Program-made: the position numbers and the translations under genes
Notes under the pieces: model-generated
Told to the model about the DNA's origin: nothing
Database searches by the model: none
The model's input: only the letters and a program-made list of their open reading frames with translations
Assembly: GCA_029548805.1 (NCBI GenBank)
Contig: JAKPMS010000010.1
Span: 1 to 54,237, forward strand
Origin: Spirochaetota bacterium
GTDB lineage: Bacteria > Spirochaetota > Spirochaetia > Treponematales > UBA12059
Direction: 5' to 3'
Length of the DNA stretch: 54,237 nucleotides
Shown here: positions 36,359-52,706 of the stretch, one piece after another
How the letters are laid out: every line of letters begins with the position of its first letter
How positions within the stretch are numbered: the stretch's first letter is position 1

Positions 36359-36431
36359 CTCAAGTGCGAAACCGCTGCCACAGTAACTCAGCGACCTTTT
36401 ATTAAGAACAGCCGGTTGTACTCCCGCAGGT
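36359..36431. repeat. Direct repeat copy B, spanning the nrdJ stop codon
   Basis: Includes the last 30 nt of nrdJ. It lies within a perfect 16-bp inverted repeat (36358-36373 / 36429-36444). Confidence 0.95.
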
Positions 36432-39400: not shown

Positions 39401-39875
39401 CCAGGCCGTAAACGGCATGAAGGCCCGTGTTAAACCATTGAGGGCTGTTGGGGGCAGCCATCTGCAGCGCAAGCATCCTGCAGCTTTCGTCGTAAAAGGC
39501 TTTTTCATCTTCTTCAGTGTCAAAATATGCCATGGATTTGCCCCAGCTTAGCCAGGTATAAGCCAGCCGATGAAAAACCTGCCGGGCATCATGCTCCGAA
39601 CCGGGGATAGGAGAAGGGTTGGAAGACGCTTGCTGGGATGCCGGAACCCATGCCTTCCAGTCCTCAGCCTTGTCTGCAGGAACCCCTGCTTTTCTTAAAT
39701 ACTTTTGTGCCAATATATCCGTGGCAATTTGGCTCCAGCTGGATGGTACTATAACGCCATCCATGCGGAATACTATGCTGCCGTCACTTGCCCTGATTTC
39801 TGACACACGTTTTTCCCATTTTATTCCCTCATAGGGGCCTTGTCCTGACTTGGTAAACTTGCGATCAACTTTCAT
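36402..39875 (-). CDS. nrdJ: Adenosylcobalamin-dependent (class II) ribonucleotide reductase
   Basis: About 1157 aa with the active-site region ...SNPCSEY..., a TVAPTGTI block and a Cys-rich C-terminal tail (CPVCGH...CLKCETCGSTTGCS). I prefer the start at 39875 (MKVDRKF) because a GGAGG RBS precedes it. Confidence 0.9.
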   Translation of the reverse strand: MKVDRKFTKSGQGPYEGIKWEKRVSEIRASDGSIVFRMDGVIVPSSWSQIATDILAQKYLRKAGVPADKAEDWKAWVPASQQASSNPSPIPGSEHDARQVFHRLAYTWLSWGKSMAYFDTEEDEKAFYDESCRMLALQMAAPNSPQWFNTGLHAVYGLEGPAQGHYYVEPKSGELKASVNAYERPQPHACFILDVEDDLVNEGGIMDLVEREARLFKYGSGTGSNFSKIRAINENLSGGGVSSGLLSFLKIADRSASAIKSGGTTRRAAKMVILDADHPDIEAFIDWKTGEEYKVACLATGSKSLRQHAIAIKDSAARSDIPATDRLSLESNPYLRKAIKSALAAGVPGPYLYQLLRRIADGDSDILGPLFDLSWEGEAYNTVSGQASNNSVRLSNDFMEAIAKNKDWPLTARKNSKTIKTVKARTLWDRIAKSAWQCADPGLQFHTTINEWHCCAADGPIRASNPCSEYMFLDDTACNLASLNLLSFYDAAKQRFDNEAYRHAVRLWTLTLEISVLMAQFPSKAIARKSYDYRTLGLGYANLGALLMTMGLAYDSEEGRNITAALSAIMTGEAYAQSARMAKELGPFARYGANAEYMLRVMRNHRRAAYNAESNEYEALSVVPKGIDAHKTPGYLLEAARNAWDEALSLGEKHGYRNAQTTAVAPTGTIGLLMDCDTTGIEPDFALVKFKKLAGGGYFKIVNASVVPALKTLGYKENQIEDIKLYMLGSGTLKNAPVINLETLKAKGFSDTALTKAEAALKTAMSLDSVFNPGILGTEELDSLGADIDARNEAGFDLLSYMGFSQEEIEAAETWTCGTMGIEGAPHLKKADYPVFDTATASGKNAQRSIAWQAHIAMMAASQPFISGAISKTINMPNSSTFEDVKGAYMSAWKSMLKSIALYRDGSKLSQPLSSIAANADPLAEQLLDLQSEPAGLNQENILLDNLAQTAQKTREPLPNRRLGYTQKAKIGGHSVFVRTGEYDDGRLGEIFLDMHKEGAAFRSLLNSFAIAVSLGLQYGVPLEEYTDAFTFSRFEPNGMVQGHEYIKMATSVLDYVFRDLAISYQDRFDLGQVNPEDLKSTNTQNGKARRMAERLAFAPEAPKTEAKKNVLPKDEAKKARMRGYEGDPCPVCGHLTLVRNGTCLKCETCGSTTGCS

Positions 39876-40007
39876 AAAACCTCCAGAAACACATGACCCA
39901 TACCATTGATGGTATGGCCAAGCCAATCTAACGCAATATACTGTACCTGTCTAGTATTAATTTGTAATTAATGGCCTTCATTTTTAAATCCGATATTAAA
40001 GGGGAGT

Positions 40008-41519
40008 ATGAAAAACCTAGCCGTTATCAACGCCATAAACCTAAAGCCTTATGCTCTAAAACCCCTGTTTGACGGAAAAAGTGCTTTTTCCATGGTTCAG
40101 GATTATTGCAAAAGCCTGGCAAGCGACATACTTGTCCTGGCTGGCAAAGATTTTCCGGTAAAAGGCATAGCTGCGCTGGAGCTGGAAAACAGCAATATGA
40201 GTACGCTGCTGGCAGCAATAAACAAGGAAGCCGGCAAACGACCGGATATAGACACCATTTTGTATGTTCATTGTGATACTCCCTTTCTGGATTTGGACTT
40301 GGGCAGGGAACTTTTGGACATGCATAAGCGTTACCGGGCTGAATACAGTTTTGCCGACGGTTATCCAAGCGGATTTGCTCCGGAAATTCTGAACAAACGC
40401 TGTATTCCCAATCTGCATTTGCTTGCAGAGCGCCATGACTGTAATGCCGGCAAAGACGGATTGTTTGCAGTAATACAGAATGACATAAATTCGTTCGATA
40501 TTGAAACAAAATTGTCCTCTCTGGATTTGCGGGTTTACAGGCTTAAGCCCGTTTGTGACACAAAAATAAACACTTTTTTGGCAGAAAAACTGTGGAGCCT
40601 GGGTGTCAGGTCTGCTATTGATGCCATTAAGCTCATTCCTGCCCATCTGGAACTATTAAGGAATATCCCCGCATTTTTAAGCATCCAGACCAACGAAGCT
40701 TGCCCCCAAGCCTGCAACTATTGCCCTTATCCTCGTATGGCAGGCAACCCGCTCGGGCTAAAAGCCTTTATGAGTATAGACAGGTTTGAACGCATAATGG
40801 CAGAAGCCAAAAACTTGTGGGATGAGCTTGTTGTGGATATTTCTCTTTGGGGCGAGCTTGCTTTGCACCCTGACCCGGCAGCAATTGTGGAATCCGTAAT
40901 GGACAAGGAAGGTTTCAGCCTGATAATCGAAACTTCCGGCTTGGGCTGGAAACCCGGACTTGCAGAGCAGCTTGCAGAAAAATGGGGCAGCAGGATTCAG
41001 TGGATTGTTTCATTGGATGATATAGAAGAAAAAGAATACGAAAAGCTGCGTGATAAAGGCTGGGAAGAAGCCAGTGTTTTTGCAAAAAACATGCTTAAAT
41101 CAGCTAAAGAAAATGTCCATATCCAGGCAGTCAGGATGAAGGAAAACGAGCCAAGGCTGGAAAGCTTTTATCGTTTCTGGAAGCAAGAAGCCAACAATGT
41201 TATAATACAGAAATATGATTCCTTTTCCGGAAGCCTGCCTGACAAAGCTGTAGCCAATCTTGCTCCTATTAAACGTCTGCCTTGCTGGCACCTGGCCAGA
41301 GATATGTCCATTTTACTGGATGGCAGCGTACCAAGCTGCAAACACAGTCTGCTGCAAAAGGGAAGGGTGCTTGGCTACGCGGAAATAGCGGCAAATGTAT
41401 TTGATGACGGCCTTGATACTGCGTGGCAAAGCCTGGGGGGCTGGTTCAAGCGTCATGTGGATGAGGATTATCCAGAAACATGCAGGCATTGCGATGAATA
41501 CTATACCTTTAACGCTTGA
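40008..41519 (+). CDS. Spiro-SPASM-type radical SAM protein with an N-terminal nucleotidyltransferase-like region
   Basis: CX3CX2C is CPQACNYC at 40701-40724. The C-terminal Cys motifs are CWHLARDMSILLDGSVPSC and CRHC. As I recall, this layout matches the spirochaete-restricted spiro-SPASM family. Confidence 0.7.
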   Translation: MKNLAVINAINLKPYALKPLFDGKSAFSMVQDYCKSLASDILVLAGKDFPVKGIAALELENSNMSTLLAAINKEAGKRPDIDTILYVHCDTPFLDLDLGRELLDMHKRYRAEYSFADGYPSGFAPEILNKRCIPNLHLLAERHDCNAGKDGLFAVIQNDINSFDIETKLSSLDLRVYRLKPVCDTKINTFLAEKLWSLGVRSAIDAIKLIPAHLELLRNIPAFLSIQTNEACPQACNYCPYPRMAGNPLGLKAFMSIDRFERIMAEAKNLWDELVVDISLWGELALHPDPAAIVESVMDKEGFSLIIETSGLGWKPGLAEQLAEKWGSRIQWIVSLDDIEEKEYEKLRDKGWEEASVFAKNMLKSAKENVHIQAVRMKENEPRLESFYRFWKQEANNVIIQKYDSFSGSLPDKAVANLAPIKRLPCWHLARDMSILLDGSVPSCKHSLLQKGRVLGYAEIAANVFDDGLDTAWQSLGGWFKRHVDEDYPETCRHCDEYYTFNA

Positions 41520-42456
41520 TTCATACCGTCCCACATATACTGTTATTGGCGGAAGCCGCATAGCACAGAGTACAGAGCATCACCCTGTTTCCATACTGCT
41601 TATAAACAGGGGCCCCCGGCCTTACAGAAGCGCAGCCATTACAGAGCTGCTAAAGGCCGGTTTTCATTCCATCGTATCCATAGAAACGGGAGCCGATACC
41701 CCCGAGCTGGAAGCCATTGCGTCCAGGACTCCTGCGCTAAGGTATATATGCATGCATGAAGAGCATAATCCCGGTATATGCATAAATATAGGTATAAGGG
41801 AATCCCTTGCCCCTTATGTGCTGGTTCTGTGGAATGACATGAGGCTGGCCAGCAGTGCCTTGTCCAGCCGCTTTTTTGAGCGCGTTCTGGAGTTGGACCA
41901 TGCCTGTCTGGCTCCAATGTTTTTTGATTCGGACGGAGCTGTTGTTCCGTCTGTTACCCATCCGGCCCAATCTGGAAAAGCGTTCAGGGTGGTACAGCTT
42001 AACCCGCTAAAGGATGGAGAAAAAAGCCTTTTTCCTTTTGACTATTCAGGTATTTATTCCAGGGAAAAATTCATTATGCTTGGGGGCTATGACTGGACAC
42101 TGCAAAATCCGTATTGGCAGAAACTGGATTTTGGCTTGCGTTGCTGGCTTTGGGGAGAAACAATAAGCCATGTTCAGGCCCTGAAAATAAAATTTGAAGG
42201 AAGCTTGGCTGTAGAAGACCATAGCTATGACGAGGACTATGACAAATTCTGGCTTAAAAACCTTGCCCCGGTGTACAGGGGGGACTCCGCATATATACCT
42301 TTGTCAAAGTTTTTTGGATATATGTGGAGCTCCAAAAAGCACTTAAGCGCTTCTGTAATGGATTTTTCCGCTGCCAGAAATTGGGTAAAAGCCTGTTCTT
42401 ATCGTTTTAAGGCGGATGCTTCCTGTTTGGCAGGCTTGTGGGATCCTATGCCATGA
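41494..42456 (+). CDS. Hypothetical protein, GT-A (family 2) glycosyltransferase-like
   Basis: VSILLINRG...NPGICINIGIRESLAPYVLVLWNDMRL resembles the GT2 N-terminal pattern. The start at 41494 overlaps the upstream gene by 26 nt and is uncertain. Confidence 0.45.
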   Translation: MNTIPLTLDSYRPTYTVIGGSRIAQSTEHHPVSILLINRGPRPYRSAAITELLKAGFHSIVSIETGADTPELEAIASRTPALRYICMHEEHNPGICINIGIRESLAPYVLVLWNDMRLASSALSSRFFERVLELDHACLAPMFFDSDGAVVPSVTHPAQSGKAFRVVQLNPLKDGEKSLFPFDYSGIYSREKFIMLGGYDWTLQNPYWQKLDFGLRCWLWGETISHVQALKIKFEGSLAVEDHSYDEDYDKFWLKNLAPVYRGDSAYIPLSKFFGYMWSSKKHLSASVMDFSAARNWVKACSYRFKADASCLAGLWDPMP

Positions 42457-43133
42457 AGACCGGTTTGATAGTTCAAATGCGCCTGGATTCAAAACGTCTG
42501 CCGCGCAAAGCGCTGCTGCCTTTTGCGGATACCGTGTTGGCAGGATATGTGCTGGAACGGCTTAAAAGGCTTGTGGCGGATGAATACATATTGGCTTGCC
42601 CCGAAGACTCGGCCAAAGAGCTGGCTCCTTATGCTGCTGCTAGCGGTTTTGATATATTTACAGGCCCAAAAGAAGATGTCCTGGCCCGCTATGCATTGGC
42701 TGTAAAAAAATACAGGCTGGATACAGTAATAAGGGCTACAGGCGACAATCCTTTTGTATCCATTCCTTTGGCAAGAATGGCGCTGTCTTTTAAAAATGAT
42801 GCTGATTATATAGCCATTACGGGCATGCCTTTGGGCATGGGTGTAGAAGTGGTAAATGCAAAAGCATTACTGGATGCATACGCTAAGGCAGAAGATCCAT
42901 TTGACAGGGAACATGTATGCCCGTATTTGTATAAAAGGCCAGAATTGTATAAAATTCTGAAACCGGATTGTCCATCCGAGTATTTTTATCCCGATGGACG
43001 ATTGACTATAGATACAGAACAGGATTATCAAAATGCAATACAGCTGCTAGATGCATTGGGCATGGATTGCAGCGATTTTTCAATTCTGTCATGGTTAAAA
43101 TCGTGTGGTGATAAAAAAAGGCAAAACCTGTGA
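42453..43133 (+). CDS. SpsF/PseF-like cytidylyltransferase (acylneuraminate cytidylyltransferase family)
   Basis: MKTGLIVQMRLDSKRLPRKAL... is the typical N-terminal nucleotide-binding motif. I prefer the ATGA-overlap start at 42453. Confidence 0.75.
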   Translation: MKTGLIVQMRLDSKRLPRKALLPFADTVLAGYVLERLKRLVADEYILACPEDSAKELAPYAAASGFDIFTGPKEDVLARYALAVKKYRLDTVIRATGDNPFVSIPLARMALSFKNDADYIAITGMPLGMGVEVVNAKALLDAYAKAEDPFDREHVCPYLYKRPELYKILKPDCPSEYFYPDGRLTIDTEQDYQNAIQLLDALGMDCSDFSILSWLKSCGDKKRQNL

Positions 43134-44872
43134 CAGAAATACTGTTGGTGCCTTCCCTTAGAAAAGGCAATGGCTCCGGACATCTTCAACGCTGTTTTTC
43201 CATTTTGGCGGGCCTTGGCAACAAAGCTGCAATATATTTGCCATCCAGGCCGGAATACGGAAGCTGGTCCAGTGCCGAGTTGAAACTGGCTTTTCCAAAA
43301 CAAACAACCGGAATCAGCATTATCGAATCCATAACGCCGGAGTCAAGCTTCAAGCTTGTAGTGCTGGACAACAGGTTTACACAAAATGATGTTTTGGAGT
43401 TTTGGTCAAGCAAAGGCCCGGTTGCGGCATTGGACGAGTCTGGTCCAGCCAGAAACTTTGCAGACTATATAATTGACATACTTCCCAGCAGGGCCTATAT
43501 GACCAAAGCCAATCTTGCAGGCCTGGGCTATCTGTTTTTGCCAAAAAACAGGAGAACAGCACCGGAAAAGCTGAAACGGGTTTTGGTCAGCTTTGGGGGA
43601 GAAGACCCTGCTGGCCTTGGCAACGCATTTCTTAAAGCTGCCACCGGTATTATTAGGCCGCAAGATATAAGTGTGGTCAGCGGAGCTCTTTCTGCTGCCA
43701 TCAAGTCATACCCCGGTATCATCACCCTTGGGCCAGTGCAAGACCTTAAGGAAAAGCTTTATGCCTATGACCTGGTAGTTTGCCAGTTTGGCTTGACTGC
43801 CTACGAAGCTGCATGGGCAGGCTGTGCCGTGCTTTTGTTAAGCCCAAGCCGGCTGCATGAAGATTTGGGCAAGCAGGCAGGCTTTGTAAGCCTGGGGCTC
43901 GGAAAGCCAACAAAACAGGCTTTACTGGCTGCCCTGTCCAATCCGCAAGTACTCATAGAGTCGAGTAAAAAGGCTGCGCCGCAAGTATCATTAAATTTGT
44001 CTGAAAAAATAGACAGCCTGGAAGCCGACTGTTATTCGGAATGCCCTTTTTGCCGCCAAGGCAAGCTGCCCGCAATTTTCAGAAATGAAATAAAAACCTA
44101 CCGCAGCTGTCCTGAATGCAATACTGTGCTTTTGAGTTCTTTTAGCAGTAAAAAACCTGAATACACGGACGATTCATACTTTTTTGAAGAATATAAAAAG
44201 CAATATGGGCGAACTTACATAGAAGATATTCCCAATATAAGGGAAATGGCTGCGAAGCGCTTAAAAATAATGGAACATATTCAAAATGGCAAAAAGGGCA
44301 GGCTGCTGGATATTGGATGCGCTTATGGAGCTTTTGCTGCAGAAGCACAAGACCGGGGTTGGGAAGCAAGCGGGGCGGATATATCTGCGCAAGCTGTTGA
44401 ATATGTAAAAAAAACCTTCAATCTGCCTGCTTTTGTGGCCGACTTTCAGCTGCCTGCCGCAGACGGCTTTTATCCCAGAAACCTGGATTGTATAAGCATG
44501 TGGTATGTAATTGAGCATTTCAAGGATATAGACAGGGTATTGCAGCGGGCTTCCCATTTGTTAAAGCCAGGAGGGCTGCTGGCTTTTTCCACACCATCTT
44601 TGTCCGGCATATCCGGCAAAAAAAACCCGGAAAAGTTTCTAGAGGCTTCTCCCCTGGACCATTATACTATTTGGAGCCCCAAAAGCGCCCGCCTTATATT
44701 AAAGCGTTATGGCTTTTATATAAAAAAGATCAGGGTTAGCGGTCATCACCCCGAGCGTTTTACTCTTTTTACTTCAAAAGCTGGTACTATTCCGTATAAA
44801 ATCACAATGCTAATATCCAAATTGTTTAAGCTTGGTGATACCTTTGAGTGTTATGCCATTTTAAAAAAATAA
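43130..44872 (+). CDS. Fusion protein: PseG-like glycosyltransferase/hydrolase domain, 4-Cys zinc ribbon, class I SAM-dependent methyltransferase
   Basis: GTGA-overlap start. N-terminal GNGSGHLQRC resembles the PseG GTGHxxRC motif. CPFC...CPEC lies at 44042-44119, and methyltransferase motif I is LLDIGCAYGAF. Confidence 0.6.
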   Translation: MTEILLVPSLRKGNGSGHLQRCFSILAGLGNKAAIYLPSRPEYGSWSSAELKLAFPKQTTGISIIESITPESSFKLVVLDNRFTQNDVLEFWSSKGPVAALDESGPARNFADYIIDILPSRAYMTKANLAGLGYLFLPKNRRTAPEKLKRVLVSFGGEDPAGLGNAFLKAATGIIRPQDISVVSGALSAAIKSYPGIITLGPVQDLKEKLYAYDLVVCQFGLTAYEAAWAGCAVLLLSPSRLHEDLGKQAGFVSLGLGKPTKQALLAALSNPQVLIESSKKAAPQVSLNLSEKIDSLEADCYSECPFCRQGKLPAIFRNEIKTYRSCPECNTVLLSSFSSKKPEYTDDSYFFEEYKKQYGRTYIEDIPNIREMAAKRLKIMEHIQNGKKGRLLDIGCAYGAFAAEAQDRGWEASGADISAQAVEYVKKTFNLPAFVADFQLPAADGFYPRNLDCISMWYVIEHFKDIDRVLQRASHLLKPGGLLAFSTPSLSGISGKKNPEKFLEASPLDHYTIWSPKSARLILKRYGFYIKKIRVSGHHPERFTLFTSKAGTIPYKITMLISKLFKLGDTFECYAILKK

Positions 44873-44933
44873 GAGTATAAAAGTTTCAAAAATGGTGTTT
44901 ATAAATAGACCTGAAACTTTTGTTGGAGATAAA

Positions 44934-46505
44934 ATGAATTCTGTTCTTATTCTTGGGGCCGGGTTTATGCAGGGGCCGGCCATACGAATTGCAAAGCAAA
45001 AAGGCCTAAAAGTATATGCAGCCGATGCAAATCCTGCGGCTGTATGTGCCAAAGAAGCCGATGTTTTTCTGCATATCGACCTGAAAGACAAGGAAGGGCT
45101 TGCAGAAGCCGCCATGAAAATTCCAGCTTTGCTTGGGGTTTTTACCGCAGGAACGGATTTTTCAGCATCCGTAGCATGGGTAGCAGAAAAATTGGCTTTG
45201 CCGGGGCCTTCCTACCAAGCAGCGCTGAACGCGTCCGACAAAAGCAGGATGCGAAAGGTTTTAAAAGAAGCCGGAATCCCGGTACCAGCTTTTGCCAATG
45301 CTTCCGCAGATTCTGACCCGCTAGAATTGGCAAAGAAAGTTGGCCCTCTTCCTTTGGTGGTAAAACCGGTAGACAGTATGGGTTCCAGGGGCTGCCGCCT
45401 GGCCAGAAATGCAAATGAATTAAAAGAAGGCTGGGCTGCAGCCATAAACAGTTCCAACTCCAAAAGGGCCATACTAGAAGAATACCTTAATGGCCCAGAA
45501 TTCAGCCTTGATGCCCTGGTATACGAGGGGCAGGTGCATATAAGGGGAATTGCTGATCGTTTTGTATATTTTGAGCCATATTTTGTAGAGATGGGGCATA
45601 CCATGCCATCATCCTATAATGCCGAAATACTAAAGGAAGTTGAGGATATTTTTGTAAAAGGCATAAAAGCTTTGGGAATAGACAACGGCGCTGCCAAAGG
45701 TGACATAAAATATACACGAAACGGCGCTTTTGTGGGCGAAATTGCAGCCAGACTATCCGGAGGCTATATGTCCGGCTGGACTTACCCCTATTCAAGCGGC
45801 ATAAACCTTACAGGAGAAGCCTTGGATATAGCTTGTGGGAAGAAACCGGGTTTTGCTAAACCCACCACAAAAATGAGTTCATCTGAAAGAGCCTGGATAA
45901 GTATACCAGGCAAGGTGGAATCTATATTTGGCCTTGAAAAGGCTAACATAAAAACTTTTGTAAAAAATGTTTTTCCCATAGCGGAAGTTGGCAGTACAGT
46001 TGTATTCCCAAGCAATAATGTACAGAAATGCGGTAATATTATAGCTGTTGCGACCAGTCAACTGGTAGCGGATGCCGTAGCAGAAGCTACAGCCAGAGAT
46101 ATACTCCTAAAGCTAGCTATTGATAATGACTCAACCATGGCTTTTATCAACAAAAACAAGGAATGGGCTTGGGTCAGGGACGCTTTTTCCGGTTTATCCG
46201 CCATGACTTTGGCTTCCCTGGATAAAATGCCTGATATACTAAAATTGCCAGAAAATACAAAAGCGGCTCCACGTGTTACTATTGCTCCTTTGCCAGGCAT
46301 AGATGCAGAAGAAGCCAGGGACTGGCAAGACAGAAGTATAAGCGATGCACTGGAAGCAGTAAAACTTTTGTGCAAAGCTTCAGTGGGTATGGATGGTGAT
46401 CTGGTTATTGGAGCCGGGTTTTGGAAGGCGTTTTTAAGGGGGGGATATCAGGGCGGGGTTTGGGCCATAGACAGGGTATTACACAAGGTGTTACACGGGG
46501 TGTAG
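44934..46505 (+). CDS. ATP-grasp domain protein with a ~200-aa C-terminal extension
   Basis: MNSVLILGAGFMQ...PLVVKPVDSMGSRG...ILEEYLNGPEFS is an ATP-grasp pattern. I prefer the start at 44934 because GGAG lies upstream. Confidence 0.75.
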   Translation: MNSVLILGAGFMQGPAIRIAKQKGLKVYAADANPAAVCAKEADVFLHIDLKDKEGLAEAAMKIPALLGVFTAGTDFSASVAWVAEKLALPGPSYQAALNASDKSRMRKVLKEAGIPVPAFANASADSDPLELAKKVGPLPLVVKPVDSMGSRGCRLARNANELKEGWAAAINSSNSKRAILEEYLNGPEFSLDALVYEGQVHIRGIADRFVYFEPYFVEMGHTMPSSYNAEILKEVEDIFVKGIKALGIDNGAAKGDIKYTRNGAFVGEIAARLSGGYMSGWTYPYSSGINLTGEALDIACGKKPGFAKPTTKMSSSERAWISIPGKVESIFGLEKANIKTFVKNVFPIAEVGSTVVFPSNNVQKCGNIIAVATSQLVADAVAEATARDILLKLAIDNDSTMAFINKNKEWAWVRDAFSGLSAMTLASLDKMPDILKLPENTKAAPRVTIAPLPGIDAEEARDWQDRSISDALEAVKLLCKASVGMDGDLVIGAGFWKAFLRGGYQGGVWAIDRVLHKVLHGV

Positions 46506-46506
46506 C

Positions 46507-47577
46507 ATGAGAATTATAAAACTTGAGCCCTTGTTTTTAGCAAAAAAAGTCCTGTTATTGGCCTCGTTTTTAATTATTCCATTAATTATACTTAATGCGG
46601 AAGAAAATATTCCGCTTTCTGAAGCGGCCGCAAAATGGAAGGCCGTTTTTTCTTATGACCCTTTGACCCAAACAGGTTATATATTAAGAAACAAGGACCT
46701 GGTACGTTTTAAAAAAAGCTATCCGGTATTTTTATTGGGAAAAGACAATGCTTTGCATGCAGAAGCTATTATTGACAATTCAAAGGGTCTTTTTATTCCG
46801 GAATCCACATTTAATGCCATTTCTGCATATTTTGAAGAAAAGGACAAGGAAAGGACAAGCCACTTCAGAATTGCTGCCATAATTATAGATCCCGGGCACG
46901 GCGGCAAAGACCCGGGAGCAATCGGAGAATTCGGATCGGGCAAGGACAAGTTCAAAATTCAGGAAAAAGACATAGCATTGGCGGTTGGAAAGGATGTGTA
47001 CTCAAGCTTGCAAGAAAAATGGCCGGAAAAAAGCATACTCATTACCAGAAACAGCGATGTATATCCATCTCTTGATGAAAGGGTGGATATGGCAAATATC
47101 ATGGAGCTGGGAATAAACGAAGCCATCATTTTTATTTCCATTCATGCAAATGCTTCCTTCAACAAGTCGGCATCGGGTTATGAAGTATGGTATCTTAACC
47201 CTGATTATCGCAGAACGGTTATGGACGACAAAAAATCTGTCGGAGTTGATTCCCAGGTACTGCCCATACTCAATGCAATGCTGGAAGAAGAGTATACTAC
47301 AGAAAGCATTTTTCTTGCCAAAAACATACTTTCTGGCATGAAAAAAACACTTAGTCCGGATATACCGGACAGGGGCTTAAGGGCGGAAGAATGGTTTGTG
47401 GTACGAAATGCCAAAATGCCATCAGTACTAGTTGAGCTGGGTTTTGTTACAAATGAAGCAGAAGCCAGACGTTTGGCTGACCCGGCTTACTTGAAAAGCC
47501 TGTCCGAAGGCATTTATAATGGAATAAGCGATTTTATTGAGTATTTTGAAAACCGAAAGGGCAATCCATTACATTGA
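46507..47577 (+). CDS. N-acetylmuramoyl-L-alanine amidase (Amidase_3/AmiC type)
   Basis: IIIDPGHGGKDPGA and ISIHANA motifs, with an N-terminal TM/signal segment. Confidence 0.85.
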   Translation: MRIIKLEPLFLAKKVLLLASFLIIPLIILNAEENIPLSEAAAKWKAVFSYDPLTQTGYILRNKDLVRFKKSYPVFLLGKDNALHAEAIIDNSKGLFIPESTFNAISAYFEEKDKERTSHFRIAAIIIDPGHGGKDPGAIGEFGSGKDKFKIQEKDIALAVGKDVYSSLQEKWPEKSILITRNSDVYPSLDERVDMANIMELGINEAIIFISIHANASFNKSASGYEVWYLNPDYRRTVMDDKKSVGVDSQVLPILNAMLEEEYTTESIFLAKNILSGMKKTLSPDIPDRGLRAEEWFVVRNAKMPSVLVELGFVTNEAEARRLADPAYLKSLSEGIYNGISDFIEYFENRKGNPLH

Positions 47578-48095
47578 AACCATTTTTTGAGACATTGGCC
47601 GCAAGCGCTGACAAGTTTTTGCATATTGTATTGAGGCCAAAATATCTGCTGCCGGCAATTTTATGCCTTTTTTTCCTGATTTCCGCAATATTTCTTTTTA
47701 TAAAACCTGCCAGGACAGCTGTCAGCCTTTGGTACCCGGATAGCCGTATTAACAGCAAAGCCTTGAATGCAGAACTTCGCTTTATTCCATATAACAAAGA
47801 TCCGGCAATGTTTGCAGAAAGCTTGCTGGAAGAACTGATTCTGGGGCCTGCCAATTCCGCCAGTCGGGCATTTGTTCCTTCCAGCACCAGGGTTAGCAGG
47901 GTTATTGCATCAAACAAGGTTTTGTATATTGATATTTCTCCCGATTTTTTATTTGGCAATCATAATGATATGGGTGTTTACAGCTTGCCGGATTATGAAC
48001 CGTCACGGGCAATAGACTTAATTAAAAAGAATCTTTCATGGAATTTGAAAAAATTTAACATAATATTGACAGTATCAGGGCAGGAGCCTTGGTAA
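47574..48095 (+). CDS. Membrane-anchored GerMN-like domain protein
   Basis: The TTG start overlaps the amidase stop (TTGA). It has an N-terminal TM segment and an LLEELILGP motif reminiscent of GerMN domains. An amidase-GerMN pairing is common. Confidence 0.45.
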   Translation: MKPFFETLAASADKFLHIVLRPKYLLPAILCLFFLISAIFLFIKPARTAVSLWYPDSRINSKALNAELRFIPYNKDPAMFAESLLEELILGPANSASRAFVPSSTRVSRVIASNKVLYIDISPDFLFGNHNDMGVYSLPDYEPSRAIDLIKKNLSWNLKKFNIILTVSGQEPW

Positions 48096-48140: not shown

Positions 48141-48168
48141 TTGACAAAGAATATGGCTTCGCTATAAT
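48141..48168 (+). promoter_or_regulatory. Consensus sigma70-type promoter of the third flaA gene
   Basis: TTGACA-N16-TATAAT (TTGACAAAGAATATGGCTTCGCTATAAT). Confidence 0.6.
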
Positions 48169-48217
48169 CAATTAAAATTGACTAAATTGTACGCGCATTA
48201 TGGAAAGGAGCAATTTA

Positions 48218-49300
48218 ATGAGAAGGCCGTTAGCTCTGATCATCGCAGCACTGCTAATAGCAGGCAGCTCGCTTGTTATTGCCGATGAAGCCGTACTGAT
48301 CGACTTTGCGTTGCTCGGGGCAGATATTATCGAAGATCCAATCGATAATTCTTTGACCCAGAATCGTGCAACAATGATGGACTTTTCCACTGTTGCCGGA
48401 GCAAGCTATACGGAAGATCAGAAAAAGCAGATGGCTATATCCCTGGCCATACCCAATTGGGATGTAGTTCTTGCATCATCTTCCAGAACAGGAAGCAGAC
48501 AGGCGCTTTCCTATACCAGGGAAGCAAAACTGGCACAGGAAGCCAAGCAATTTCCTGGCGCCACTGTTATGGGTATCAGGATAAACTTCCCACTGGAGCC
48601 TTTCAACTCCTGGGCTAGAATTCAACCACCTTTTGAAGTTCCCGCTTTTGAACCCAAGGCTGATATTAATGACGATGGCGTTATAAGCGTAAAACAGAAT
48701 GCCCAGGGTGATGATCCGGTTAATGCCCGGCTTACCCGCTTTGAAGGCAGCTATAATGCTGATACCAAGATTACAACAGCGTTGGGAGTTGTCAAAAATG
48801 TCGGAGTTATCAAATCCATAGCAGTAAATGTCAAAGGGCTCAACTTTCCCCATGGCTTGTCCCTAATTTTAAAGGACAACGACAACGTAGAGCATGTTAT
48901 GTTCATGGGCTACCTAAACTTTGACGGATGGAGAGAGCTCAGGTGGGATAACCCCCAGTACATCAGCGATGTTAGGAACAGAGAACTCAGGATTGACCCT
49001 CTGTATCCCCGGTCTACTCCTTTTGTAAAGTTCGGCGGATTTGTTATCAACAGGGATGCAGCAGCTCCCGGCGGAGACTTTATAGCCTATGTAAAGGATG
49101 TAAAGATTCTTTATGACAAAGCCGTACTTGAGCCTGTACACGATATAGATGATGAAGCAATCTGGGGTATAGTTGGCAAAAAAGAGGATGACCGCAAAAA
49201 ACTCGAAAGCCAGCGCTTTGGATCTTCACAAGTTATGCGCTATATAGAAAGAATGAAACAGGAAACCAGGACTGAATTTACAGAAGAAAAGAACGACTGA
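48218..49300 (+). CDS. flaA: Flagellar filament outer layer protein FlaA paralogue
   Basis: I prefer the start at 48218 (MRRPLALIIAALLIAG...) because AAGGAG lies 7 nt upstream. FlaA-like blocks include GWRELRWDNP and the IAYVKDVKILYD-type C-terminus. Confidence 0.8.
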   Translation: MRRPLALIIAALLIAGSSLVIADEAVLIDFALLGADIIEDPIDNSLTQNRATMMDFSTVAGASYTEDQKKQMAISLAIPNWDVVLASSSRTGSRQALSYTREAKLAQEAKQFPGATVMGIRINFPLEPFNSWARIQPPFEVPAFEPKADINDDGVISVKQNAQGDDPVNARLTRFEGSYNADTKITTALGVVKNVGVIKSIAVNVKGLNFPHGLSLILKDNDNVEHVMFMGYLNFDGWRELRWDNPQYISDVRNRELRIDPLYPRSTPFVKFGGFVINRDAAAPGGDFIAYVKDVKILYDKAVLEPVHDIDDEAIWGIVGKKEDDRKKLESQRFGSSQVMRYIERMKQETRTEFTEEKND

Positions 49301-49326: not shown

Positions 49327-49365
49327 GGACTGTCCAGAAAATAAAATTTTTGGACAGTCCTTTTT
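49327..49365 (+). terminator. Rho-independent terminator of flaA
   Basis: A 10-bp stem (GGACTGTCCA / TGGACAGTCC) followed by T5. Confidence 0.75.
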
Positions 49366-49405: not shown

Positions 49406-50647
49406 ATGTCTGATGCAGAAGCCATAAGCAGGATTTCTCTAGAAAAGATATATAAACAGGAAAAAAAAACCATGGAGGCTGTCCTAACCAATATGGTCAA
49501 ACTGATACAGGAAAAAATATCTTTGGAAGGCATGTTTCCTGCCTACAAAAGCAGGTTAAAGTCGTTTCAAAGCTTTTTTTCCAAAAAAATTAAGTTTGCC
49601 CGTGATGCTACAATTCAGGGGAGTGTACCTCTCCCGATAAGTGATATTCTGGCTGTAAGAATTATATGCCCTTTTATAAGCGACATAGAAAAGATAGAAA
49701 AAATTCTTTCTGAAAATTTTATAATCCGTGAAATAGAAAGAAAAGGCTTGGACAGGTCATTCAAGGAATTCGGTTATGAATCCATACACCTGCTGCTTGT
49801 CATACCAGAGGATATGCTTGCCGGTATAAGCTTTATAAACCCTCCTGTTTGTGAGGTCCAGATTCGCACCATTTTACAGGACGCCTGGGCAGAAGTTGAA
49901 CATGAACTCGTTTACAAAGCGGAATTTACTCCATTTGATGATCCCATGAAGCGAAAATTGGCTGCTTTGAACGCAAATCTTACCCTTTCTGATATGCTTT
50001 TTCAGGAAATACGAGATTACCAACATCAGCTAAGCAACGAATTGGCCAAAAGGCGTGTAGCCTTTTTTAAAAAAATTGAAAATTCAATTGACAACGAAAT
50101 GTACAAAAATATTAAAGCGGAGGATAAAAAGGCGGATCCGGGCAGCAGTCAGCCTGCCTGGCTGGAATCACTCAAGTCTCTGGATGACCTTCTGCTTGAA
50201 GCGCTGAATGCCCATAACAGGGCAGATTACTTAAGGGCCATAAATATATACTCTTATATATTGAGCCTTGATCCCAAAGCGGATATAAAAACCCTTATTT
50301 TCAAGCATCGCGGCATGGCATATTTTTCCGAAAGCAAATATGACGAAGCCCTGAATGATTTTTCTTCAGCCCTGGAAATGGATGGCAAATGTTATAAAGC
50401 TGCCTATTACCGCGGAGTGGTACACAGTGTTAAGCAAAATTATGCTTCTGCCGTAGACGATTTTAGCAGAGCCTTACTGCTCCATCCTTACCATTTTTAT
50501 TCCATTTACAGAAGAGCCCAGGCTTATTTTCATATAGAAGATTACCCAATGGCTTTAGCTGATTGTGATACTGCCATGGAACTGGATCCATACAACGAAG
50601 GCCTCAAAAAGTTAAAAGCCCTGGTTATGAAAAAATTGCGTATGTAG
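49406..50647 (+). CDS. Small alarmone synthetase (RelA/SpoT nucleotidyltransferase domain) fused to C-terminal TPR repeats
   Basis: The GYESIHLL...EVQIRTILQDAWAEVEHELVYK synthetase motif is present. The C-terminal ~160 aa carry TPR-like repeats (A..Y..AL..DP...). Confidence 0.8.
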   Translation: MSDAEAISRISLEKIYKQEKKTMEAVLTNMVKLIQEKISLEGMFPAYKSRLKSFQSFFSKKIKFARDATIQGSVPLPISDILAVRIICPFISDIEKIEKILSENFIIREIERKGLDRSFKEFGYESIHLLLVIPEDMLAGISFINPPVCEVQIRTILQDAWAEVEHELVYKAEFTPFDDPMKRKLAALNANLTLSDMLFQEIRDYQHQLSNELAKRRVAFFKKIENSIDNEMYKNIKAEDKKADPGSSQPAWLESLKSLDDLLLEALNAHNRADYLRAINIYSYILSLDPKADIKTLIFKHRGMAYFSESKYDEALNDFSSALEMDGKCYKAAYYRGVVHSVKQNYASAVDDFSRALLLHPYHFYSIYRRAQAYFHIEDYPMALADCDTAMELDPYNEGLKKLKALVMKKLRM

Positions 50648-50704: not shown

Positions 50705-50776
50705 GTCCCCTTCGTCTAGTGGTTAGGACACCGGGTTTTCATCCCGGCAACGGGGGTTCAATTCCCCCAGGGGATG
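50705..50776 (+). tRNA. tRNA-Glu (anticodon UUC)
   Basis: Hand-folded cloverleaf: acceptor GTCCCCT/AGGGGAT, D stem GTCT/GGAC, anticodon stem CCGGG/CCCGG with loop TTTTCAT, T arm GGGGG-TTCAATT-CCCCC. CCA is not encoded. Confidence 0.93.
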
Positions 50777-50778
50777 CT

Positions 50779-51417: not shown

Positions 51418-52653
51418 TTGCTTATTGATATTCTGTGCAAAGTTGTAGACAATTTTGGAGATATCGGCTTTGTGTATCGCCTCGCAAAGGCTATCTATGC
51501 TAGTGACAGCAAATTGCGCTTAAGGCTTGTTGTGGATGGCCTGGATGCTTTTTCAAAACTGGAACCCAGAATAGACCCGGGGCAGCTATACCAGAAACTT
51601 GACAAGCTGGAAGTCTACTCCTGGAATATGCCCAAAAATAATGACAGTCCAGAAGCATATTTTCTTGATCCTCCGCTTATTGTGCTTGAATGCTTTGCCT
51701 GCGGCCGGCCGGACTGGTTAGAGGCTATACTTTTTGATGATAAAAATTACGAAGCAAATGGCCAGCCAAAATACAGGCATATAATAAATATTGAATATTT
51801 GACTGCAGAAAGCTATGCAGAAGAATTCTATCTAATGCCTTCGCTTACCCGTTCAGAGTATGTAAAAAAGCATTTTTTTATGCCGGGCTTTACAGATAAA
51901 ACAGGATCATTGATAGCAGCTTCATGTTCGGAAAAACTAAAAAATGATGGGGTTAAAAACCCCTGTTTGTCTGACAGAATGGAACTTTTAAACAGCTTAA
52001 GCCCGGGAATCGGCATGACAGGCAAGGAAGATGTTATTAAAAAAGCATGCAACAGCTTTTGGATAACGCTGTTCACTTACGAGATGAATTACAGCCCCAT
52101 AATAAAAGCTTTGGATGAATTTTCAAAAACACGGGAAGTATTGGTTTTTGCTGCATCCGGGCTTAGCCAAAGCTGCTTTACTAAAGCATGGCTAAAAAAT
52201 AATAAGGCTTTTACTGTCATTTTTTTGCCTTTTTTACCCCAAAGCTTATGGGACAGGCTTTTAAATTGCTCTGATTTTGCTTTGGTTAGGGGAGAAGACA
52301 GCTGGGCTAGGGCAGTTTTGGCCGGGAAGCCATTTGTATGGCAGGCTTATGTCCAGGATGACAACTACCAACTTGTAAAAGTAAAGGCCTTTCTGGATTT
52401 TATAAAAAATTTTAATAACTCGATAAAAGACGATGTGGACGTAGACGCATTTAATACCTTTGCTCAGCTTACTCTTGCCATAAACAGCATCGATGATCCT
52501 TCACTAATTAGCCGTCAGTCCGGATTGCTTTTGGACTTTTTACAAAATTATAGCAGATGGCTGCCATTTTTTACAAAGCTTTCAAAAAAAATTGCGGAAA
52601 ATGGCAGCCTTGAACAAAAGCTGCTGGCTTTCTTGCAAAAACTGGCTGTTTAG
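51418..52653 (+). CDS. earP: EF-P arginine-32 rhamnosyltransferase EarP
   Basis: The N-terminal DILCKVVDNFGDIGFVYRLA hallmark is present. It is about 410 aa and lies immediately upstream of efp. The TTG start is uncertain. Confidence 0.75.
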   Translation: MLIDILCKVVDNFGDIGFVYRLAKAIYASDSKLRLRLVVDGLDAFSKLEPRIDPGQLYQKLDKLEVYSWNMPKNNDSPEAYFLDPPLIVLECFACGRPDWLEAILFDDKNYEANGQPKYRHIINIEYLTAESYAEEFYLMPSLTRSEYVKKHFFMPGFTDKTGSLIAASCSEKLKNDGVKNPCLSDRMELLNSLSPGIGMTGKEDVIKKACNSFWITLFTYEMNYSPIIKALDEFSKTREVLVFAASGLSQSCFTKAWLKNNKAFTVIFLPFLPQSLWDRLLNCSDFALVRGEDSWARAVLAGKPFVWQAYVQDDNYQLVKVKAFLDFIKNFNNSIKDDVDVDAFNTFAQLTLAINSIDDPSLISRQSGLLLDFLQNYSRWLPFFTKLSKKIAENGSLEQKLLAFLQKLAV

Positions 52654-52706
52654 TATAGTATCAGAGACGGTGTTTTATTCTGTTATTTTATTTTTTGGAG
52701 TGGTAT

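Follow-up and report, generated by a model that had tools for sequence, protein, structure and literature searches.

Conserved gene cluster of sugar-nucleotide type, headed by a spiro-SPASM gene and located upstream of flaA in spirochaetes

Which function does a spiro-SPASM protein serve at the head of a cluster of sugar-modification-like genes, and why is this cluster located next to the flagellar gene flaA? The question is raised by a 54,237-nt window of DNA from a Spirochaetota bacterium, in which all junctions of the run from g1 to g6 were read directly from the nucleotide sequence, and all genes considered are on the + strand. The spiro-SPASM gene g1 (40008..41519, 503 aa) is preceded by an AGGGGAG ribosome-binding site and ends in a dual-coding overlap of 26 nt (41494..41519), which codes for CDEYYTFNA and the stop in the g1 frame and for MNTIPLT in the frame of g2 (41494..42456, 320 aa, ATG start at 41494). 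The stop of g2 and the start of g3 (42453..43133, 226 aa) share the ATGA at 42453-42456, and the stop of g3 and the GTG start of g4 (43130..44872, 580 aa) share the GTGA at 43130-43133; these boundaries are as given in the initial annotation. For g5 (44892..46505), the true start is more probably 44934, with a GGAG ribosome-binding site and the N-terminus MNSVLILGAG, than 44892. The span 40008-46505 had been credited with six genes, but contains five, the sixth being the amidase gene g6 (46507..47577), whose ATG at 46507 is separated by one base from the g5 stop ending at 46505. The compactness of g1-g5 counts for a single-pathway reading, and a single operon with translational coupling is its best explanation.

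The g6 stop lies in a 4-nt overlap with the start of g7 (47574..48095), which encodes a small GerMN (Germane) protein. A sigma-70 consensus TTGACA-16-TATAAT (48141..48168), a pattern match perfect at 12/12 positions in the consensus scan, sits 32 nt upstream of g8 (48200..49300), the gene for the flagellar filament outer-layer (sheath) protein FlaA. A terminator-like hairpin with a 14-bp stem was detected 3' of flaA by a terminator scan (49327-49360), followed by g9 (49406..50647), encoding a RelA/SpoT-domain protein (PF04607) with TPR repeats.

Conservation of the array was assessed in 82 species-level loci of Spirochaetales and Treponematales, in which g1 identity goes down to 37%. Order and strand of g1-g2-g3-g4-g5-amidase-GerMN-FlaA are kept in every sufficiently long locus (about 50-60 of the 82), and in 76 of the 82 loci g1 and g2 overlap by exactly 26 nt; such constancy goes far beyond what chance would give. 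The linkage of spiro-SPASM genes to sugar-nucleotide genes in other spirochaetes, on which the proposed pathway had been made to depend, is thereby found wherever the locus is long enough. Gene calls combined with Pfam searches confirmed the array in loci L088, L089, L091 (cultured Treponema zioleckii) and L092-L095. The g5-amidase-GerMN order is kept in at least 55 loci, FlaA lies downstream in every locus long enough to cover the region, and g9 is a conserved downstream neighbour, located behind flaA in 19 loci as well as in T. denticola. A single fusion protein of 807-843 aa takes the place of g3 and g4 in gut and rumen Treponema, which is a Rosetta-stone link of the cytidylyltransferase, PseG-like and methyltransferase activities.

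By its match to TIGR04321 (473.8 bits; cutoff 250), g1 is a bona fide member of the uncharacterised spiro-SPASM family. It also exceeds the cutoff of the radical-SAM model PF04055 (33.9 bits; cutoff 29.5), while NTP_transf_3 (19.4 bits) stays below threshold. Three domains are recognized: a degenerate SpsF-like cytidylyltransferase domain (residues 1-200), a radical-SAM barrel (residues ~221-400) with the CX3CX2C triad at residues 232-239 (nt 40701-40724), where the sequence CPQACNYC is present as initially described, and a 4-Cys Fe-S domain of the twitch type (residues ~421-503; C426, C444, C492, C495), invariant residues being taken from the alignment. The AlphaFold2 model (pLDDT 90, pTM 0.86) retrieved SuiB, CteB, anSME and BtrN in Foldseek, together with the Leptospira cytidylyltransferase 6oew; profile searches of the PDB gave BtrN (4e-7) and 6oew (1e-4). 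BtrN is matched by the barrel and the 4-Cys C-terminus in both approaches, and the earlier description of a twitch-like C-terminus can be specified as a BtrN-type twitch domain, for which the SPASM model itself scores sub-cutoff (19.9 bits). The N-terminal half of g1 aligned with g3 at an hhalign probability of 96% (E = 2.6e-9) and does not have the invariant R/S/R/K CTP motif of g3; it is a degenerate paralogue of that cytidylyltransferase. The HMM assignments bear out the domain calls for g3, g4 and g5 as well as for g1.

No Pfam or NCBIfam model matched g2, and its 474 homologues are all unnamed. The structure model (pLDDT 81, pTM 0.84), with polypeptide GalNAc-transferases as top Foldseek matches (E = 1.4e-12, TMq 0.64), predicts a GT-A fold closest to that of protein O-GalNAc transferases; the GT-A-like character ascribed to g2 is upheld by the model, with no family match. 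The alignment reveals no DxD motif; a single invariant Asp, D115 in WNDM, is found at the DxD position. A GT-A protein without DxD is as expected with a monophosphate donor.

The g3 product is a cytidylyltransferase of the SpsF type (PF02348, CTP_transf_3; E = 4.9e-28), whose closest structure is the L. borgpetersenii enzyme 6oew (4e-26) and whose N-terminal R10/S13/R15/K19 motif is invariant. Enzymes of the CTP_transf_3 family are mostly CMP-ulosonic-acid synthetases. The g4 product combines a PseG/GT28-like GT-B domain (residues 1-~290) with invariant G-x-G-H-x-x-R (G15, G17, H18, R21), FGGED (155-159) and G-x-T-x-x-E (G221, T223, E226) motifs, a 4-Cys zinc ribbon (residues 305-330, nt 44042-44119; C305, C308, C327, C330) and a class I SAM methyltransferase (residues ~371-531; Methyltransf_23, E = 2.3e-24). 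Judged by profile matches to KijD1 and TcaB9 (~1e-11; UbiG ~1e-12), the zinc ribbon and methyltransferase resemble NDP-sugar C-methyltransferases, KijD1 and TcaB9 themselves being sugar C3-methyltransferases. Of the initial designations, SpsF-like and methyltransferase stand, but PseF gave no match to g3 in the profile search (KdsB-type matches reached at most 30 bits), and PseG TIGR03590 matched g4 weakly (26 bits; cutoff 153.6). The N-terminal half of g4 found only GT28 (0.019) and the PseG structure 3hbm (0.41) in the PDB. The low PseG score, the E-value of 3hbm and the lack of a PseF-level match speak against a nonulosonic acid.

For g5, the domains ATP-grasp_4, ATP-grasp_3 and LAL_C2, and the PDB matches 4dim (4.5e-22), L-amino acid ligase 3vot (2.4e-21) and BacD, predict a carboxylate-amine ligase of the L-amino-acid-ligase type. 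The likeness extends to D-Ala-D-Ala ligases, and a conserved C-terminal extension of ~130 aa is present.

From these components a cytoplasmic pathway may be proposed, with a chance somewhat short of even, in which g1-g5 would synthesize and modify a CMP-activated acidic sugar, most likely a derivative of a nonulosonic acid of the Pse/Leg type, for the periplasmic flagellar filament. The core enzymes (dehydratase, aminotransferase, synthase) would be encoded elsewhere in the genome; as noted initially, the 54-kb window contains no Pse core genes, and PseB, PseC, PseH, PseI and Maf were found neither there nor within the 10-kb flanks of those loci for which gene calls were examined. The N-terminal domain of g4 would act as an SpsG/PseG-type UDP-sugar hydrolase or a GT28-like transferase, g3 would form the CMP-sugar, g5 would add a side chain by amide linkage between a carboxylate and the sugar amino group, and the C-terminal domain of g4 would methylate the sugar. 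The catalytically degenerate cytidylyltransferase-like domain of g1 would hold the CMP-sugar or sugar acid and present it to the BtrN-like twitch radical-SAM barrel for oxidation, epimerisation or deoxygenation at one carbon. The g2:g1 ratio would be fixed through the 26-nt overlap, and g2 would transfer or further process the g1 product.

The pairing of g3 with g4, which is of the SpsF/SpsG type, makes a link to nonulosonic acids and flagellins plausible; in B. subtilis, SpsF and SpsG are both genetically required for the display of legionaminic acid. Among spirochaetes, the structure of the flagellin glycan has been solved only for T. denticola, where a Pse-type sugar carries an amide-linked 2-methoxy-4,5,6-trihydroxyhexanoyl group, a structure for which a methyltransferase and an amide-forming ligase would be needed; a flagellin glycosyltransferase of the Maf type has also been reported. 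In the T. denticola flaA operon, the place of g1-g5 is taken by pgk and a glyoxalase-like gene, while the amidase orthologue and the amidase-GerMN-FlaA order are retained, and PseI (TDE0960) is located outside this operon. Of the nonulosonic-acid and flagellar pathway put forward initially, the conserved sugar-nucleotide operon with its SpsF/SpsG-type pair has held, but the PseF and PseG models failed and the flaA operon of T. denticola is without g1-g5. The position of PseI and this g1-g5-free operon speak against a flagellar role. FlaA, being Sec-exported, is unlikely as a substrate of cytoplasmic enzymes.

The radical step itself was examined across the family. Of 144 spiro-SPASM representatives (50%-identity set), 71 lack the CX3CX2C triad, as do 89 of the 120 Treponema-like hits, cultured T. 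zioleckii among them. The whole operon is intact beside the triad-less g1; the radical step is therefore dispensable for the operon's job in those lineages. The initially suggested radical-SAM step agrees with the triad of the g1 in the window, but it is not the conserved role of the family. One may ask if that role is instead non-radical, g1 being a putative ligand-binding, Fe-S-containing partner or scaffold of g2, in which the cytidylyltransferase-like domain and the barrel are binding modules, the C-terminal cluster serves structure or redox sensing, and the triad of the window lineage is ancestral baggage or an optional extra modification. Such a role would fit the retention of the C-terminal 4-Cys motif at a level of at least 97% and the 84-100% conservation of other barrel residues in triad-less proteins (G282, E283, E308, T309, G311, D337, Q373, R376, K402); the exact overlap suggests a fixed stoichiometry of g1 and g2, and a precedent exists in the NCBIfam 'pseudo-SAM/SPASM' family TIGR04347. 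It is nevertheless rather doubtful, since the g1 of the window and all 118 close relatives retain the triad together with SLWGE, a GGE-type motif, which points to purifying selection for a functional radical-SAM site within this lineage, and loss of the triad elsewhere could reflect a simpler glycan.

The downstream genes raise the envelope, not flagellin, as an alternative destination. The g6 product is an amidase (Amidase_3, 1.9e-47; N-acetylmuramoyl-L-alanine amidase), g7 matches PF10646 just above cutoff (3.6e-5, 24.8 bits; cutoff 23), both have an N-terminal hydrophobic segment and a conserved position, and g8 is FlaA (PF04620, 1.6e-71; 50% identity to T. denticola FlaA on L084). According to this alternative, peptidoglycan or a glycoconjugate of the periplasm would receive its precursor, a nucleotide-activated sugar or an amino-acid-bearing compound, from g1-g5. 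Together with the co-translated amidase and GerMN protein, these gene products would reshape the cell wall near the periplasmic flagella, and the proximity of FlaA would be due to coordination of sheath assembly with wall remodelling. The tight g5-amidase-GerMN junctions and their conserved order, the resemblance of g5 to D-Ala-D-Ala ligases, GT28 (the MurG family) as sole significant PDB match of the N-terminal half of g4, and the promoter apparently belonging to flaA itself are in line with it. It is still judged unlikely: the cluster has no Mur-ligase, flippase or lipid-carrier enzyme, the family of g3 points to ulosonic acids, and the two halves are separable, amidase-GerMN-FlaA occurring without g1-g5 in T. 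denticola. In T. pallidum, a g1-g4-like run (TP0284-0289), which from the literature and the annotation appears to be numbered apart from flaA, would likewise separate them. For that reduced genome, a similar run, which counts for the nonulosonic-acid pathway, is suggested by the naming of TP0285 as SPASM and TP0289 as SAM methyltransferase and by the resequencing fusions TP0284_285, TP0286_287 and TP0288_289; one spiro-SPASM family member bears the JGI name 'uncharacterized protein TP_0285'.

Adjacency need not mean shared function, since flaA is preceded by a promoter-like site of its own and, in T. denticola, is called an 'orphan flagellar gene', co-transcribed with the unrelated housekeeping genes pgk and glyoxalase-like; yet a merely inherited gene order, in which the glycan made by g1-g5 would be a general one for the surface or for storage (glycolipid, capsule-like polymer or small molecule) and would have no connection with motility, is improbable, even if flaA also has its own terminator and the RelA/SpoT-TPR, exonuclease VII or class II RNR neighbours are equally conserved with no obvious link, because unrelated genes would not usually keep an eight-gene arrangement in two orders with protein identity at 37%, FlaA lies downstream in all loci of sufficient length, and T. 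pallidum, if the literature is read correctly, keeps the g1-g4 run in 1.1 Mb. To our knowledge, T. pallidum has no LPS or capsule.

Summarizing, the data support a real, deeply conserved operon of the sugar-nucleotide type, physically tied to flaA. We infer from its gene content that its substrates may be nonulosonic acids, its target the flagellum and the chemistry of g1 a radical modification of the sugar.

The spiro-SPASM gene g1 certainly heads a deeply conserved, translationally coupled operon, which encodes enzymes of the nucleotide-sugar type and abuts an amidase-GerMN-FlaA unit. Five genes on the forward strand make up its sugar-modification part (40008-46505), coding for the spiro-SPASM protein (g1, 40008-41519, with the ribosome-binding site AGGGGAG upstream), a GT-A-fold protein (g2), a cytidylyltransferase (g3), a PseG-like/methyltransferase protein (g4), and an ATP-grasp ligase (g5). 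As read directly from the sequence, the ATG of g2 lies at 41494, within g1, and the final 26 nt of g1 are coding in two frames, giving CDEYYTFNA and the stop in the frame of g1 and MNTIPLT as the beginning of g2. The stop of g2 and the start of g3 share an ATGA at 42453, those of g3 and g4 a GTGA at 43130. Translation of g5 more likely starts at 44934 than at 44892, with a GGAG site 7 nt upstream and a product beginning with MNSVLILGAG; the gene ends at 46505, and the ATG of the amidase gene follows at 46507. The gene boundaries described in the initial annotation are all present; of the six genes it counted between 40008 and 46505, five are located there, the "sixth" being the amidase gene at 46507. 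By domain search, the genes downstream encode an Amidase_3 protein (g6, 46507-47577), a Germane-domain protein (GerMN, g7, 47574-48095), and FlaA (g8, 48200-49300). The products of g1 to g5 are of cytoplasmic appearance upon inspection of their N-termini. In Rfam and tRNA scans, the surroundings of the cluster yielded no regulatory RNA, and a single RNA gene was detected in the whole window, a tRNA-Glu (UUC) at 50705-50777 (+), flanked by the RelA/SpoT-TPR gene (49406-50647, +) and a small ORF of hydrophobic character.

When one genome per GTDB species was scanned, at least 585 contigs proved to encode a relative of g1; the best 80 of these, which derive without exception from MAGs or environmental taxa, were retained with flanks of 10 kb. 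The closest relative is 97% identical and derives from an uncultured "Spirochaetota bacterium"; the next shares 67%, and identities are 57% or less thereafter. When the window proteins were aligned by tblastn with these best 80 of at least 585 relatives, the order g1-g2-g3-g4-g5-amidase-GerMN-FlaA was found on one strand in every locus long enough, with g1 identities down to 37%, and each missing gene is explained by a contig end. In 76 of 82 loci, g1 and g2 overlap by exactly 26 nt; the remaining junctions overlap or abut, and the sole regular gap in these 82 loci, with a median of about 65 nt, precedes flaA. The RelA/SpoT-TPR gene downstream of flaA is conserved as well. Upstream, the window's lineage (31 loci) has a divergently transcribed gene for a class II ribonucleotide reductase, in place of which other lineages have exonuclease VII; in the window, the B12-dependent reductase (36402-39926, -) comprises 1174 amino acids, with a TSCPD domain at the C-terminus and a tail rich in Cys. 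The array has a single exception, locus L061, where 5.6 kb of unrelated opposite-strand genes separate g1 from g2; inspection of this insert for Pse genes was uninformative, since it encodes a racemase, a cyclase, and transporters instead. Gene calls combined with Pfam confirmed the array in two large environmental contigs, in the cultured Treponema zioleckii, and in four more gut or rumen Treponema genomes. The mid-operon functions cytidylyltransferase, PseG-like domain, and methyltransferase reside in one protein of 807-843 amino acids, equivalent to g3 plus g4, in gut and rumen Treponema (L091-L095), in two proteins in the window, and in three in the environmental locus L089, where g4 is split into a 357-amino acid PseG-like protein and a 190-amino acid methyltransferase (13126-14923). 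The fusion of g3 and g4 ties the three activities to one pathway. The linkage of the spiro-SPASM gene to sugar-nucleotide genes, from which a radical SAM step in a spirochaete-specific glycan or flagellar modification pathway had been proposed at the outset, therefore stands, as it recurs in all spirochaete loci of sufficient length. In the gut Treponema contig ERZ15610136 NODE_2 (L090, 11940-21632), a phage-type integrase, a reverse transcriptase, and small ORFs directly follow g1, in the place of g2; the operon was apparently interrupted by a mobile element just behind a spiro-SPASM gene that lacks the cluster cysteines discussed below.

The g1 protein matches the NCBIfam model TIGR04321 with 473.8 bits (cutoff 250), residues 4-503 aligning with positions 2-510 of 510. 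The family thus bears an NCBIfam name, spiro-SPASM, but has no assigned function, and a full-text literature search found no paper naming it. Its motif CPQACNYC at residues 232-239 (C232, C236, and C239), which corresponds to the CX3CX2C triad of radical SAM enzymes, and the GGE-type SAM motif S-L-W-G-E at 279-283 are invariant among window-like relatives, and PF04055 is matched with 33.9 bits (gathering score 29.5). By motif and score g1 is a predicted member of the radical SAM superfamily, with SAM cleavage as its predicted activity. Toward the C-terminus only four cysteines are conserved (C426, C444, C492, and C495; spacing C-x17-C-x47-C-x2-C), in contrast to the seven to eight of full two-cluster SPASM enzymes, and PF13186 (SPASM) scores 19.9 bits on g1, below its cutoff of 21.5. 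This fits the one-cluster "twitch" arrangement of the 2-deoxy-scyllo-inosamine dehydrogenase BtrN, as the partial SPASM/twitch-like label of the initial annotation had foreseen; the spacing of the four cysteines is similar to that around the single auxiliary cluster of BtrN.

In the structure model of g1 (pLDDT 90, pTM 0.86), the C-terminal two thirds are matched by Foldseek to SuiB, CteB, anSME, BtrN, and SkfB (6.5e-11 to 1e-7), with which g1 shares CX3CX2C, a partial TIM barrel, and a C-terminal auxiliary-cluster domain; the best PDB sequence-profile match of the barrel is again BtrN (4e-7). What sets g1 apart from all of these enzymes is an N-terminal degenerate cytidylyltransferase domain of 200 amino acids. 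For the N-terminal third, both structure and profile point to the Leptospira borgpetersenii cytidylyltransferase 6oew, and Foldseek also to MobA and GlmU. Residues 8-198 are a paralogue of g3 (profile-profile probability 96%, E = 2.6e-9), with the motifs D-x-P and A-[DE]-Y...G-x-P-x-G in common but without the R10/S13/R15/K19 motif that is invariant in g3, which suggests that the domain would bind the substrate or product of g3 rather than catalyze cytidylyl transfer. An assignment of g1 to MoaA or MobA relatives was rejected, the scores being generic (24-35 bits versus cutoffs above 230). A peptide-modifying (RiPP) role, as might be read from the SuiB, CteB, and SkfB matches, was likewise rejected for want of a precursor-like small ORF and an RRE domain, and is further disfavored by the nucleotidyltransferase fold of the N-terminal domain.

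The window contains a second radical SAM/SPASM gene at 26630-28060 (+), encoding 476 amino acids, the best NCBIfam matches of which are AhbD and NirJ at 112-121 bits, far below cutoffs. As listed, this ORF overlaps the preceding one by about 85 nt. It is situated amid three ORFs without Pfam or NCBIfam match (24373-24984, 24981-26714, and 28076-28975, all +), and 24373-28975 may represent an uncharacterized maturase cassette.

A loss of the radical SAM triad was first seen in a Treponema-centered alignment, in which many members are devoid of cysteines at the CX3CX2C position. In a family survey, 1.84 billion representatives were searched and 490 spiro-SPASM clusters obtained at E ≤ 1e-30. Among the 144 near-full-length representatives of the 150 listed, 71 are without triad, 68 carry the canonical triad, and 5 a CXnCX2C variant; this sets the family apart from the twitch and SPASM enzymes, as half of it is without the SAM-cluster cysteines. 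The triad is canonical in all 118 window-like hits, whereas among 120 Treponema-like hits it is missing from 89, including cultured T. zioleckii, and canonical in the other 31, with no variant. The Treponema-centered search and the cluster look-ups reached gut and rumen Treponema, not oral or pathogenic species. Loss of the triad leaves barrel, C-terminal cluster, and pseudo-cytidylyltransferase domain as well as the complete operon in place: the four-Cys motif is present in at least 97% of each set, the barrel residues G282/E283, E308, T309, G311, D337, Q373, R376, and K402 are still 84-100% conserved, the N-terminal motifs are conserved too, and triad-less g1 genes occur within the fully intact operon. 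Since half of the representatives are triad-less with the operon retained, the family-wide function cannot require SAM-radical chemistry. A non-radical scaffold or binding role of the spiro-SPASM protein is a rival, if less probable, explanation for the family at large; in the window's lineage, the invariance of the triad site indicates that it is clearly under selection. A named precedent for a radical SAM/SPASM-derived family without the canonical site is, to judge from its name, the haloarchaeal "pseudo-SAM/SPASM" family TIGR04347, which belongs to another lineage and context; in contrast to it, the loss in spiro-SPASM is partial (approximately 50%), and both types of members occur in one operon architecture.

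The translationally coupled partner g2 has no Pfam or NCBIfam match, none of its 474 homologues carries a Pfam domain or an informative name, and searching the PDB with its profile returned nothing; the fold is seen in the structure model alone. In the AF2 model (pLDDT 81), g2 is predicted to adopt a GT-A Rossmann-like fold, with 320 Foldseek matches at E ≤ 0.001, headed by polypeptide GalNAc-transferases of family GT27 (E = 1.4e-12, TMq 0.64), on the catalytic domain of which it superposes over about 320 columns. By eye, the stretch FPFDYCGIY..E.F...GGFD and the helix WQKLDFGFR are shared with GT2 enzymes. Differences from GT27 and GT2 are a sequence identity of 9-13%, the lack of a Pfam model and of a lectin domain, and the absence of DxD or DxH, D115 of W-N-D-M being the sole invariant Asp, with position 114 variable and 116 Met. 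As metal-independent GT-A-like enzymes that use CMP-sugars exist, the lack of DxD is compatible with a CMP donor, without being proof of it.

Among the following enzymes, g3 matches PF02348 (CTP_transf_3) with 98.9 bits (4.9e-28), but no PseF or NeuA model of NCBIfam at E ≤ 0.01, the best being the KdsB subfamily with 30 bits versus cutoffs of 193-255; its closest structure by far is the uncharacterized Leptospira cytidylyltransferase 6oew (4e-26). In the N-terminal GT-B domain of g4, the PseG model TIGR03590 is matched only over residues 129-235 (26.4 bits, below the cutoff of 153.55), and profile matches in the PDB are marginal, with a GT28 glycosyltransferase at 0.019 and PseG (3hbm) at 0.41, so the domain was not called PseG. 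The earlier PseF- and PseG-like labels hence hold as far as CTP_transf_3 and a weak PseG match are concerned, but not at the level of the PseF and PseG models themselves; the other domain calls put forward for checking by HMM (TIGR04321, CTP_transf_3, methyltransferase, and ATP-grasp) were all matched. The GT-B domain carries three invariant motifs, G-x-G-H-x-x-R, FGGED, and G-x-T-x-x-E; G15, G17, H18, and R21 are invariant in 33 orthologues in a region weakly aligned to residues 4-83 of 3hbm, and H18 is presumably the counterpart of the catalytic His of PseG from Campylobacter jejuni. Behind this domain follow a zinc ribbon of four invariant cysteines (C305, C308, C327, and C330) and a C-terminal methyltransferase (Methyltransf_23, 2.3e-24). 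The NDP-sugar C3-methyltransferases TcaB9, KijD1, and TylC3 likewise have a class I SAM methyltransferase behind a zinc ribbon of four Cys (profile matches 1e-11 to 7e-5; KijD1 at 1.2e-11, TcaB9 at 4.5e-11), but g4 does not have the C-terminal domain found in TcaB9 and its family, its methyltransferase comes after a GT-B domain in one chain, and UbiG-type O-methyltransferases are matched equally well (1.6e-12). The ligase g5 has the profile of an ATP-grasp L-amino-acid ligase, with PF13535 (55 bits), PF02655 (46 bits), and PF18603 (36.6 bits) all above cutoffs and the PDB matches 3vot (L-amino-acid ligase, 2.4e-21) and BacD (3e-11), D-Ala-D-Ala ligases being more distant.

An SpsF-type cytidylyltransferase together with a protein of SpsG/PseG type is the signature of the legionaminic-acid pathway of Bacillus subtilis, for which SpsF and SpsG are genetically required. 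With this sps pathway and the Pse pathways of Campylobacter and Helicobacter, the latter (PseB, C, H, G, I, F) associated with the flagellar filament, the cluster has in common cytoplasmic enzymes and a CTP_transf_3 cytidylyltransferase beside a PseG/GT28-like GT-B protein. It differs from them in that g3 and g4 fall outside the PseF and PseG equivalog models, in that the PseG-like domain is joined with a methyltransferase bearing a zinc ribbon and, in Treponema, with the cytidylyltransferase as well, and in that further genes encode a radical SAM/twitch protein, an ATP-grasp ligase, and a GT-A protein that is novel. It also differs in that dehydratase, aminotransferase, N-acetyltransferase, and NeuB-type synthase are found neither in the cluster nor in the window; Pfam scans of 35 selected non-overlapping window ORFs outside the cluster detected no PseB, PseC, PseH, or PseI domains, in accordance with what had been noted for the core synthase, aminotransferase, and dehydratase. 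The gene-called g1 flanks of seven other loci (L088 and L090-L095) are likewise free of Pse core domains, and the only such ORF in the flank of L089, truncated and located at the far end, matches PF01370 (Epimerase/NAD_binding). No MAF_flag10 or FlmG-like protein was detected among the window ORFs scanned by Pfam, and no Maf in the inspected flanks. Maf and FlmG are cytoplasmic as well and would put CMP-activated nonulosonic acids on Ser/Thr of flagellin, but g2 has a predicted GT-A fold and is neither a Maf nor a TPR-GT-B protein.

In T. denticola, the core of the flagellin bears an unusual glycan of the nonulosonic-acid type, which is essential for filament assembly; the FlaB proteins carry a nonulosonic acid of Pse configuration, to which a 2-methoxy-4,5,6-trihydroxyhexanoyl group is attached by an amide bond. 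For its methoxy and amide groups, a methyltransferase and an amide-forming ligase would be needed; no description of the enzymes building this side chain was found in the literature covered, the primary glycan paper lying outside its scope. The cytoplasmic look of the g1 to g5 products would suit the modification of flagellins that are exported via the flagellar type III system. Most likely, if still tentatively, g1 to g5 would act late in the synthesis of a CMP-activated sugar of the nonulosonic type and decorate this sugar, which would be used on the periplasmic flagellar filament, the gene-by-gene roles being putative. A bolder and rather doubtful extension is that the spiro-SPASM protein and its coupled GT-A partner form a two-protein machine of spirochaetes, not recognized before, that acts on a CMP-sugar for the periplasmic flagellum, with the family in transition from a radical SAM enzyme to a non-radical Fe-S and ligand-binding protein. 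Alternatively, the operon could serve an envelope or peptidoglycan-linked product, a less probable rival explanation tied to the co-translated amidase.

The T. denticola flaA locus was retrieved by a metagenome scan with a published primer (L084, ODVE01000336.1), and 11 of the 12 published primers tested, all but P8, match it exactly. Amidase, GerMN-like protein, FlaA, and RelA/SpoT-TPR protein are in the same order there as in the window; the T. denticola flaA operon is described in PMC9481697. No homologues of g1 to g5 were found on this contig by tblastn; upstream of the amidase, translations inspected by eye identified a glyoxalase/VOC-like protein of 125 amino acids and phosphoglycerate kinase (6951-8677, -), which are TDE1716 and TDE1715, heading the T. 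denticola flaA operon. In T. denticola, housekeeping genes are thus in the position held by g1 to g5 in most other Spirochaetia; its PseI (TDE0960) is encoded at another locus than flaA, and Maf has been reported in this organism. In the window, pattern matching revealed a perfect sigma-70 consensus, TTGACA-16-TATAAT, 32 nt upstream of flaA (48141-48168, +) and a terminator-like hairpin with a 14-bp stem and a T-run after it (49327-49360, +), from which flaA may be transcribed alone, apart from g1 to g7, unlike the T. denticola gene, which is co-transcribed with four upstream genes. Mere inherited adjacency of g1 to g5 to flaA is the remaining and least probable rival explanation, to be weighed against the gene order kept across distant relatives.

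Regarding T. pallidum, a SPASM Fe-S protein has been predicted for TPASS_0285 and a SAM methyltransferase for TPASS_0289, and upon resequencing TP0284+0285, TP0286+0287, and TP0288+0289 were merged to three genes. This matches g1, g2, and a g3-g4 fusion as in gut Treponema. The JGI label of one family member reads "uncharacterized protein TP_0285", and TP0288 is annotated as spsF. From the literature tables, the JGI name, and this annotation, T. pallidum appears to keep the genes.

Further flagellar genes of the window are two shorter FlaA-family genes in tandem (6930-7667 and 7677-8465, both -; PF04620 2.9e-46 and 7.8e-22), which recall FlaA1 and FlaA2 (TDE1408 and TDE1409), minor sheath proteins that were recently reported from T. 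denticola; next comes an ORF of 293 amino acids without family match (8597-9478, -). A TRAP transporter (11158-14960, -) consists of a fused DctQM-like gene and DctP together with a TAtT "T-component" TPR protein (PF16811, 7.3e-58), a type that was originally reported from T. pallidum. The gene for an EarP-like arginine rhamnosyltransferase of EF-P immediately precedes that of EF-P itself (51418-53273, +; PF10093 2.3e-74; TIGR03837 233 bits, below the cutoff of 347); an EF-P modification system of the EarP type is noteworthy for a spirochaete.

Summarizing, the family and its parts are of known kinds, and what is new, to our knowledge, is their combination; we know of no description of a pseudo-cytidylyltransferase/twitch radical SAM fusion with an obligate GT-A partner, a PseG-like/methyltransferase fusion, and a widespread loss of the radical SAM site. 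For radical SAM enzymology, the degenerate cytidylyltransferase fusion and the repeated loss of the triad with conserved barrel offer a natural case in which changes of enzyme function could be studied. Spirochaete motility relies on periplasmic flagella, and the spiro-SPASM protein now has fixed genomic partners beside flaA, namely, the products of g2 (GT-A protein), g3 (cytidylyltransferase), g4 (PseG-like/methyltransferase protein), and g5 (ATP-grasp ligase). This partnership provides a concrete, testable hypothesis for a conserved pathway that is possibly of relevance in pathogens.
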